Below are positions 13,726 to 16,000 of a stretch of DNA of 42,916 nucleotides, one piece after another. This stretch comes from Escherichia phage PhiR55_1: the sequence record PV340571. One strand, given 5' to 3'. A model generated the notes under the pieces. It was given only the letters and a program-made list of their open reading frames with translations, ran no database searches and was not told where the DNA came from. Numbering within the stretch: position 1 is the first letter of the stretch; every line of letters starts with the position of its first letter. The position numbers and the translations under genes are program-made.

Positions 13726-13767
13726 AAGACCTCTTATTGAGGGGGTAATTGAATCAGTTTAATGTGT

Positions 13768-13798
13768 GGGGAGTCGATTTATTCTCCCCATTTTATTT
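13768..13798 (+). terminator. Rho-independent terminator after the Q-like gene
   Basis: GGGGAG-N10-CTCCCC stem-loop followed by ATTTTATTT. Confidence 0.55.
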
Positions 13799-13809
13799 AA
13801 TTAATTTAC

Positions 13810-14256
13810 TTAAGGTTTTAATTCATCAAGACGTTGTTGGATAGTGTTTTTGCTTGCGTTGTCTGTTATAGCCATTTGTTGTACTTGCCCCATTGCCATT
13901 TGAGTTTCCATCCACATATCGGCCCACACTTTTGTATCGTTATTAACTTGAGCGATAGTAAATCTGACTTTTGATACCGGGGTTGTTGAATAGGCATTGC
14001 CGATTAACATTTGTCCAAAAACAGCAGACCCGCCTTCCAGTTCTTTACCACATATAACACTGCTGTTATCAGCGTTGTAAATTATCAACCCTCTACTATT
14101 GCAGTAATTCACAAGGGCATCTTTGACTTTATCTTTTGTCGTATTTTGATAAACCCCCTCAGGTTTTCCTGATTGAGTTTTTTTTATCAATGGTACGGAA
14201 GAAGTACAACCTGAAATGATAGTTGCGCTAAGTAATAGTACAGTCATTTTATTCAT
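13810..14256 (-). CDS. Lipoprotein moron (AT-rich, opposite strand)
   Basis: Signal peptide with lipobox (MNKMTVLLLSATIISGC); lies in a visibly AT-rich segment, antisense to the flanking phage genes. Confidence 0.6.
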   Translation of the reverse strand: MNKMTVLLLSATIISGCTSSVPLIKKTQSGKPEGVYQNTTKDKVKDALVNYCNSRGLIIYNADNSSVICGKELEGGSAVFGQMLIGNAYSTTPVSKVRFTIAQVNNDTKVWADMWMETQMAMGQVQQMAITDNASKNTIQQRLDELKP

Positions 14257-14311
14257 GTTTCTTATCCATTGTTAAGGGCATACCTACACAATTATTTTTA
14301 TTGGAGATGAA

Positions 14312-14339
14312 TAATCAACCGTTTACAATCGTAAAAAAT
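14312..14339 (+). promoter_or_regulatory. Candidate sigma-70 promoter (possible late promoter)
   Basis: TTTACA (14312-14317), 16-bp spacer, TATGCT (14334-14339), about 40 bp upstream of a terminator. Confidence 0.3.
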
Positions 14340-14373
14340 CAAATATGCTGTTAAGAGTGGTTACTTCGCCACA

Positions 14374-14395
14374 CAACTTAAACCCGCCGCTGAGC
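14374..14395 (+). terminator. Rho-independent terminator (possible tR'-like)
   Basis: CCGC-tga-GCGG short stem followed by TTTTTTT; closely resembles the terminator at 1197-1217. Confidence 0.45.
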
Positions 14396-14502
14396 GGTTT
14401 TTTTGTACCTGTAAACTTGGTGCAGTACAGTAAACACGCTGGTGGTCGTGAATACTGACCTTTTATCTTGCTGGCTTTTTAGACAAGAGTTATTGGTATG
14501 TC

Positions 14503-14730
14503 ATGTTAACCAGAAGGGAAAAAGACATGCTAAAACAGCAAGATATGACAGAAACCGCCGCCGCAGTCCTTCATTTCTTACCTGCTGACAAGTGGGTAAC
14601 GCCACGCATGATGACGAGAACTACCGGAGTAAGCGAAGCCCGGTGCCAGTTAATACTGACTCAGTTAGTTCTGGCGGGTCTGGCGAAGGATAACGGCGGG
14701 TACGGGAATAAATTCAGACGCTGCCAGTAA
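14503..14730 (+). CDS. Small winged-helix-like DNA-binding protein (hypothetical)
   Basis: HTH-like segment TTGVSEARCQLILTQLVLAGLA; a better ribosome-binding site (AAGGGA) precedes the internal ATG at 14527, giving a 67-aa product. Confidence 0.4.
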   Translation: MLTRREKDMLKQQDMTETAAAVLHFLPADKWVTPRMMTRTTGVSEARCQLILTQLVLAGLAKDNGGYGNKFRRCQ

Positions 14731-14880
14731 TGGCGGTTTCCTGCTGTGAAAATGGGCGGCTGGTGGGTGTTGGTAGCACCTGCCAGCCATTCGCTCATGC
14801 CTACTGGTCACAAGCGAACCACGGCCCACTGCTTTAGCGCAAAAGCAGAGTGAGCCTACCAGAGTTACGCTTACTGATCC

Positions 14881-15933
14881 ATGAAAAATACTGTAAAAAT
14901 AAACAGTGTTGATTTAATCAACGCTGATTGCCTGCATTTTATTCAGTCCCTGCCTGATGATTCCATTGACCTGATTGTTACCGATCCGCCTTACTTCAAG
15001 GTGAAACCCAACGGCTGGGACAATCAGTGGAAAGGGGACGAAGATTACCTTAAGTGGCTGGACCACTGTCTGGCCCAGTTCTGGCGGGTGTTGAAACCTG
15101 CCGGAAGCCTTTACCTGTTCTGTGGGCATCGCCTGGCATCTGATATTGAGATCATGATGCGTGAACGTTTCAACGTGCTTAACCATATCATCTGGGCGAA
15201 GCCGTCCGGACGTTGGAATGGGTGTAATAAAGAAAGTCTGCGCGCATATTTTCCTGCCACAGAGCGCGTTCTGTTTGCTGAACATTACCAGGGGCCATAT
15301 CGCGGCAAAAGTGACGGCTATGCGGCAAAAGAAAGGGAACTCAAACAGCACATAATGGCACCGCTGATATCGTATTTCAGGGATGCTCGTGCCGAACTGG
15401 GTATAACGGCAAAACAGATTGCCGAAGCCACTGGTAAGAAAAATATGGTTTCCCACTGGTTTGGTGCCAGTCAGTGGCAGTTGCCGAATGAGGCTGACTA
15501 CCGGAAGTTGCAGGCACTGTTTTCCCGTATAGCGGCAGAGAAGTTTCAGGAAAAACAACTGGAACAACCACACCACCAGCTGGTGGCATCTTATGATTCA
15601 CTGAATCGCAAATATTATGAATTGCTGGATGAGTTTAAAACTCTCCGGCGCTATTTCTCCGTATCAGTTTCCGTGCCTTATACCGACGTCTGGATGCATA
15701 AACCCGTTCAGTTCTACCCGGGGAAACATCCGTGTGAGAAACCGGCGGATATGCTCAGGCAAATAATCAATGCCAGTAGTCGACCAGGTGATCTGGTTGC
15801 TGATTTTTTTATGGGCTCCGGTTCCACAATAAAAGCAGCAATGGCGCTGGGGCGTCGGGCCTTAGGTGTTGAGCTTGAGTCAGAGCGGTTTAACCAGACA
15901 GTGAAAGAGATAAACGAGCTGGTGGGGAAATAA
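14881..15933 (+). CDS. Orphan DNA methyltransferase, beta-class N6A/N4C (DPPY motif)
   Basis: Catalytic DPPY (LIVTDPPYF) and C-terminal AdoMet motif (FFMGSGST); no adjacent restriction endonuclease candidate. Confidence 0.7.
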
Positions 15934-15939
15934 TCTGGT

Positions 15940-15964
15940 GGCCACGTCAGGTGGCCTTTTTATT
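15940..15964 (+). terminator. Rho-independent terminator immediately upstream of the holin gene
   Basis: GGCCAC-gtcag-GTGGCC followed by TTTTTATTT. Confidence 0.6.
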
Positions 15965-16000
15965 TCCATTACACAGCACCCGCATCTGCGAGGTGGGGTT

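Follow-up and report, generated by a model that had tools for sequence, protein, structure and literature searches.

A lipoprotein cassette between a Q21/Q933W-family antiterminator gene and its predicted late promoter in Escherichia phage PhiR55_1

In Escherichia phage PhiR55_1, a lambda-like E. coli phage, the gene for the late antiterminator Q appears to be separated from that Q's own late promoter by an imported, AT-rich cassette that carries a leftward lipoprotein gene. The window (the whole stretch of 42,916 nucleotides that was analysed, sequence record PV340571) was described in the original prediction as holding one moron block, at 13726-15965, between Q and the lysis genes. The lipoprotein gene, the small ORF and the methyltransferase gene named there are all present in the list of open reading frames, and the Q-to-lysis region stands as a cargo site, in that the lipoprotein cassette has a foreign composition and lies between elements that are adjacent in relatives. 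The single block does not stand. The interval quite probably comprises three units: the lipoprotein cassette at 13726-14321, the late promoter (pR') unit at 14322-14405 and a late-operon leader at 14406-15965. The features concerned, with the flanking Q and holin genes, are:

13345-13725, plus strand: late antiterminator gene Q, Q21/Q933W family (Pfam PF06530, 173 bits, cutoff 26)
13766-13798, plus strand: hairpin of GGGGAG, a 10-nt loop and CTCCCC with a T-rich tail (stem-loop 13766-13791; -13 kcal/mol, z -3.0)
13810-14256, minus strand: lipoprotein of 148 aa, predicted to be outer-membrane, phrog_3152, with the lipobox N-terminus MNKMTVLLLSATIISGC
14291-14318, minus strand: candidate sigma-70 promoter of the lipoprotein gene, TTGATT-16 nt-AATAAT (consensus match only, 9/12)
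14322-14349, plus strand: late promoter pR', placed by alignment with the annotated VT2-Sakai late promoter
14350-14364, plus strand: invariant block GTTAAGAGTGGTTAC, exact across the Q family, with the inferred transcription start at about 14356 and the first transcribed bases
14381-14405, plus strand: first terminator after pR' and tR' candidate, AACCCGCCGCTGAGCGG followed by T7 (hairpin from 14381/14386 to 14398)
14527-14730, plus strand: stand-alone winged-helix protein of 67 aa, phrog_331 (ORF open from 14503)
14881-15933, plus strand: orphan beta-class DNA methyltransferase of 350 aa (Pfam PF01555, 146 bits)
15940-15964, plus strand: intrinsic terminator in the methyltransferase/holin gap (hairpin 15940-15956 and T tail; -12.2 kcal/mol, z -2.5)
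16001-16216, plus strand: holin of the S21 type, the first lysis gene (Pfam PF04971, 121 bits)

The 3 kb of the window that were searched are 100% identical to Escherichia phage PhiR40_1. The GenBank record annotates 6 of the 12 genes in the stretch examined as "hypothetical".

The late promoter and its first terminator

The Q protein of the window is homologous to Q21 of phage 21 (PDB chains 6P18/6JNX, E 7.5e-9), 78-81% identical to the Q of the Stx phages 933W and VT2-Sakai, and 85% identical to QuuD of DLP12; the family name is that of preprint 10.1101/651190. GenBank starts the gene at the ATG at 13360. The Stx phages have no cargo between Q and pR', the two overlapping at the end of Q, and their Q has a C-terminal tail, which in VT2-Sakai is the part that overlaps pR'; the window's Q lacks this tail. 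Along with the PF06530 match, the window has the other components of a Q21/Q933W cassette, a cognate late promoter and a following terminator, with the Q-binding bases predicted.

Terminator-like and promoter-like sites were scanned for over 13000-16800, with shuffled sequence as the control. Terminator-like sites are above chance (14, versus 4.0 +/- 2.1 in shuffles) and promoter-like sites are at chance level (7, versus 5.6 +/- 2.1). The promoter scan alone therefore proves nothing, and the pR' call rests on orthology to the Sakai pR'. In VT2-Sakai, the annotated pR', qut and first terminator align with 14322-14405 of the window and not with its stretch right after Q. The window and 933W/VT2-Sakai have the same -35, spacer, -10, start-site block and first hairpin, with conserved hexamers at 14322-14327 (TTTACA) and 14344-14349 (TATGCT). 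The 16-nt spacer holds the near-palindrome ACAATCGT and an A-tract, a candidate Q-binding element, and the unit as a whole includes the invariant block TAAGAGTGGTTAC and, further on, a T7-tailed hairpin. By this alignment the pR' of the window is judged orthologous to that of Stx phage VT2-Sakai. The pR' of 933W/VT2-Sakai is constitutively active in lysogens, and that of Sakai gives a 258-nt RNA (PMC7547250). Because the Sakai coordinates of that paper do not fit NC_002695.2 directly, the start was placed from the 258-nt length and the terminator end. The promoter-like element first proposed at 14312-14339 points to the correct locus, near 14320-14350, but lies about 10 nt too low, covering the -35 and missing the -10. 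A 37-aa ORF that GenBank places at 14345-14458 was rejected as a gene; it lies across both the -10 of pR' and the terminator, and PHROG gave no match for it.

The block GTTAAGAGTGGTTAC is exact in every phage with the window's Q family, always after cargo. Kati, PhiR11_1, an O157 prophage and another E. coli prophage have exact copies of the sequence TATGCTGTTAAGAGTGGTTAC, always in the same relation to cargo, and the 15-nt core is exact in DLP12, also after cargo. In 569R4 the invariant core is kept, two -10 bases differ, and the block again follows cargo. Across at least 88 loci the spacer palindrome is specific to each Q cluster and the start-site block is constant. Of 5426 complete E. coli genomes, 950 have at least a partial match to the pR'-tR' segment. 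The block at 14350-14364 is expected to be the place of a Q-loading or pause element. Work on the Q21 mechanism places the Q-binding element of phage 21 between the -35 and -10, and a pause element in the early transcribed region (PMC6606751). Conserved elements of the window occupy the same places, and binding there is predicted. In phage 21 the element consists of directly repeated TGAGCA, whereas the window's spacer carries a dyad-symmetric site and an A-tract that vary with the Q cluster.

A reading in line with the original prediction takes 13726-15965 as one moron run in a late transcript that starts near Q and crosses all three terminators and the antisense lipoprotein gene. The three terminator-like hairpins do exist, and in lambda and VT2-Sakai pR' lies directly after or overlapping the end of Q. 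This reading is nevertheless highly improbable, as there is no plus-strand promoter-like site in 13585-14107, the sequence after Q is the cassette and is not common to other phages of the Q family, and the conserved pR' block stands at 14322-14364, both in the window and in all 57 cargo-bearing loci listed. A pR' right after Q, with the 13766-13798 hairpin as its tR', was likewise rejected: a promoter-like site is absent, the sequence is unconserved, and the conserved block is at 14350. Since the pR' at 14322-14349 stands downstream of both the 13766-13798 hairpin and the lipoprotein gene, late transcription would cross neither, and the lipoprotein gene would fall outside the late operon. What was originally said of late read-through survives in part, in that a Q-modified polymerase must pass terminators before the holin, but these number two (14381-14405 and 15940-15964) and not three. 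As to the hairpins themselves, the coordinates given for 13768-13798 and 15940-15964 agree with ours, and those of the middle one, 14374-14395, were some 10 nt too low.

This middle hairpin is weak alone (-6.3 kcal/mol, z -1.3, versus -12.6 kcal/mol in Sakai) and is a weakened allele, so its support comes from comparison with related phages. A hairpin and T-run occupy the tR' position, at the same distance, in 55 of the 66 unique related sites listed; several different stems serve there, which suggests selection for structure. Homology with the Q-lambda-type phages mEp460 and Ayreon has its right-hand junction at the same site. The Sakai 3' end was mapped 258 nt from the start, at a second terminator, and the homolog of 14381-14405 is not reported as a 3' end there (PMC7547250); with the 3' end lying beyond the homologous hairpin, the 14381-14405 terminator may be leaky. 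No strong second hairpin or terminator was found in the window before the winged-helix gene (before 14503). The weakened stem, the distant Sakai 3' end and the lack of a second strong hairpin would all suit an alternative in which 14381-14405 is not a working tR', pR' transcripts run on in the lysogen, the winged-helix protein and methyltransferase are made constitutively, and the only effective stop is at 15940-15964. We regard this as rather unlikely, given the recurrence of the structure with different stems and the T7 tract that follows the hairpin; moreover, the Sakai study is not known to have covered 50-nt RNAs. The 5' leader shows homology to StxS in the pR' alignment, but the 74-nt 3' part of the StxS small RNA, which ends at tR', is absent from the window, where blastn-short gave only a 14-nt exact match over the terminator T-tract. 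Downstream of pR' the Stx phages carry the StxS region, tRNAs and stx; in the window's leader there are no tRNA genes, and a search of Rfam at E <= 1 returned nothing.

The late-operon leader

On the preferred reading of 14381-14405 as tR', RNA polymerase would start near 14356 and, if Q is absent, should terminate some 50 nt further on, at the T7 hairpin. A Q of the Q21/Q933W family would be loaded where the spacer element and the invariant start-site block lie, and would then render the polymerase insensitive to terminators through the "nozzle" mechanism established for Q21. The modified enzyme would transcribe the genes of the winged-helix protein and the orphan adenine methyltransferase, the latter of which would mark replicating phage DNA ahead of packaging, and would go on past the second terminator into the holin gene. 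The role of this terminator would be to protect the lysis genes from transcription that leaks through the first.

The small ORF was initially called a winged helix-turn-helix (wHTH) protein, and its structure bears this out. The AF2 model (pLDDT 87) has helices at residues 7-17, 26-33 and 37-49 and strands at 53-55 and 63-65, an H-H-H-wing topology. Foldseek aligns it with Z-alpha at TM 0.83 and also with TrmBL2, IclR and MarR, and its homologs pass Pfam DprA_WH (PF17782). The call of an orphan DPPY methyltransferase is likewise sustained by the PF01555 match, a DPPY motif near residue 35 that precedes FFMGSGST (FxGxG) near residue 300, and the absence of an endonuclease ORF beside the gene, whose neighbours are the winged-helix ORF, the terminator and the holin. 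PADLOC assigns the enzyme to MTase_II (E 3e-152), with M.RsrI, CcrM and MboIIA as PDB relatives. DPPY favours adenine as the target, and the methyltransferase is probably N6-adenine-specific. N4-cytosine enzymes are also among the weaker PDB matches.

From 14381 through the methyltransferase, the terminator and the holin, the window is 96-99% identical to SfV (orf47-orf48), mEp460, cdtI and Ayreon, and the site equivalent to 15940-15964 is an annotated terminator in Ayreon and SfV. The Q of these four phages is a 250-aa protein of the Q-lambda family (PF03589) with its own promoter, unlike the PF06530 protein of the window; in mEp460 and Ayreon a rightward ORF of 138/141 aa takes the place of the lipoprotein cassette and pR'. 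No conserved promoter stands upstream of the winged-helix and methyltransferase genes, which all four phages also have in the late-operon leader, and a status of autonomous morons is not supported for them.

The lipoprotein cassette and the Q-to-pR' slot

The AT-richness ascribed at the outset to the lipoprotein gene is confirmed: the GC fraction is 0.364 for the cassette versus 0.507 for the window, and lipoprotein GC3 is 0.315. The cassette thus differs in base composition from the flanking phage genes and is inserted between elements that adjoin in relatives, Q and pR' overlapping in VT2-Sakai. Together with the other slots that the gene occupies elsewhere, these traits support the view that the cassette behaves like a moron as Hendrix and colleagues use the term. 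It was found in 185 of 5426 complete E. coli genomes, in every case in the chromosome.

With the lipobox defined as a signal peptide ending in [LVI][ASTVI][GAS]C, the N-terminus MNKMTVLLLSATIISGC conforms; in 21 homologs the lipobox is retained and its Cys never changes, so lipidation is predicted. Thr at +2, with no Asp, as read from the sequence, predicts an outer-membrane location. The candidate promoter at 14318-14291 stands back-to-back with pR', and the lipoprotein gene would be read leftward from it. A higher-scoring minus-strand site at 14275-14246 (the best, at 10/12) overlaps the ATG and so cannot serve this ORF. On the other side, the 13766-13798 hairpin, which resembles a terminator on the plus strand, lies upstream of pR' in the gap between the convergent Q and lipoprotein genes and would separate the cassette from rightward early transcription; its stem-loop (13766-13791) has no T tract on the minus strand, 3' of the lipoprotein gene. 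A hairpin directly after Q also occurs in other cargo-bearing phages, Kati and 569R4. The cassette is probably expressed in the lysogen.

The lipoprotein itself has no match in Pfam, NCBIfam or PADLOC, and none in BFVD by Foldseek at E <= 0.001. Its fold is generic, the nearest structural neighbours including the Francisella lipoprotein Flpp3 and BamC domains. The homologs, in 31 clusters confined to prophage contexts of Enterobacterales, are all in prophages and occupy four different slots; among the 4 other genera checked, 3 have the gene within clusters of tail genes (between H and M, or K and I). The J proteins beside the homologs in Salmonella and Jejubacter have only the N-terminal part in common with the window's J, and no co-variation of J tail-tip C-termini with the lipoprotein was found: lipoproteins 70-72% identical adjoin unrelated J C-termini, an observation that speaks against the receptor being matched to the tail tip of the phage itself.

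The protein probably acts on the cell envelope, either by excluding other phages or by aiding the host. It may possibly be a superinfection-exclusion factor of the outer membrane that bars access to a receptor or keeps DNA from entering, in the way that Cor and Llp act on FhuA. Its predicted outer-membrane placement, its carriage by prophages only and the position of its homologs in tail gene clusters, where exclusion morons such as HK97 gp15 also sit, are consistent with this, as is the content of the same slot in sibling phages, which holds porins and defence systems such as Kiwa. The mismatched J C-termini weigh on the other side, as does the lack of any link in sequence or fold to Cor, Llp or any PADLOC model. 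Alternatively, it might serve host fitness or virulence, through Bor/Iss-like serum resistance or in envelope stress, and have no part in phage exclusion. Lambdoid prophages do carry such lipoproteins (borD is nearby in DLP12), many carrier genomes come from human or animal isolates, and the Flpp3 and BamC neighbours fit as well; the protein is, however, without homology to Bor or Iss, and its family is restricted to those Enterobacterales prophage contexts. This role seems an improbable one. Cor (phi80, N15, HK022), Llp (T5) and Bor (lambda) are, like the window protein, small outer-membrane lipoproteins of phages or prophages and are thought to be made independently of the late genes; they have no detectable relationship to it in sequence or fold.

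The layout of the slot is a familiar one and its cargo belongs to an uncharacterised family. In the quuD-nmpC-essD region of DLP12 (qsr') in E. coli K-12, a leftward gene for an outer-membrane protein directly follows Q, and the block GTTAAGAGTGGTTAC stands between that gene and the holin, as in the window. The DLP12 cargo is a porin rather than a 148-aa lipoprotein, and in the window tR' is separated from the holin by a winged-helix gene, a methyltransferase gene and a second terminator. A placement similar to that of nmpC is attributed to the lc porin gene of phage PA-2. In Kati and PhiR11_1 the Q-to-pR' slot is occupied by intact porin genes. In a survey of IMG/VR loci with the window's Q family (at least 90 loci), cargo occupied the slot in 57 of the 90 loci listed, mostly on the minus strand, and included porins, Kiwa, nucleases and unknown gene pairs, each unannotated pair consisting of a protein of about 300 aa and a membrane protein of 150-190 aa. 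The Q stop and the block lay 625 to 3042 nt apart in these 57 and -1 to 45 nt apart in the other 33.

Nothing in the literature searched presents the Q-to-pR' slot as a hotspot of defence genes, though such an account may exist elsewhere. It is a speculative proposal, and one that we think doubtful, that the Q/pR' junction of Q21/Q933W-type lambdoid prophages is a dedicated, insulated slot for lysogen-expressed cargo that remodels the envelope or acts against phages, with the phrog_3152 lipoprotein as a new outer-membrane exclusion factor and the unannotated pairs as new defence systems. Insulation would then come from the terminator after Q on one side and from the divergent promoter abutting pR' on the other.

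Consequences for Q21/Q933W-type phages

The present reading corrects the map of a deposited phage genome, placing the late promoter about 600 bp downstream of Q; the lipoprotein would not be under late control, and the lysis genes would be guarded by two terminators only. By means of a 13-nt invariant block, the late promoter of Q21/Q933W-type phages may be located by sequence alone. The same block also marks the cargo slot that in related phages holds Kiwa, nucleases, porins and several unknown gene pairs, which makes the Q-to-pR' slot a practical place to seek new prophage-borne defence or conversion genes.

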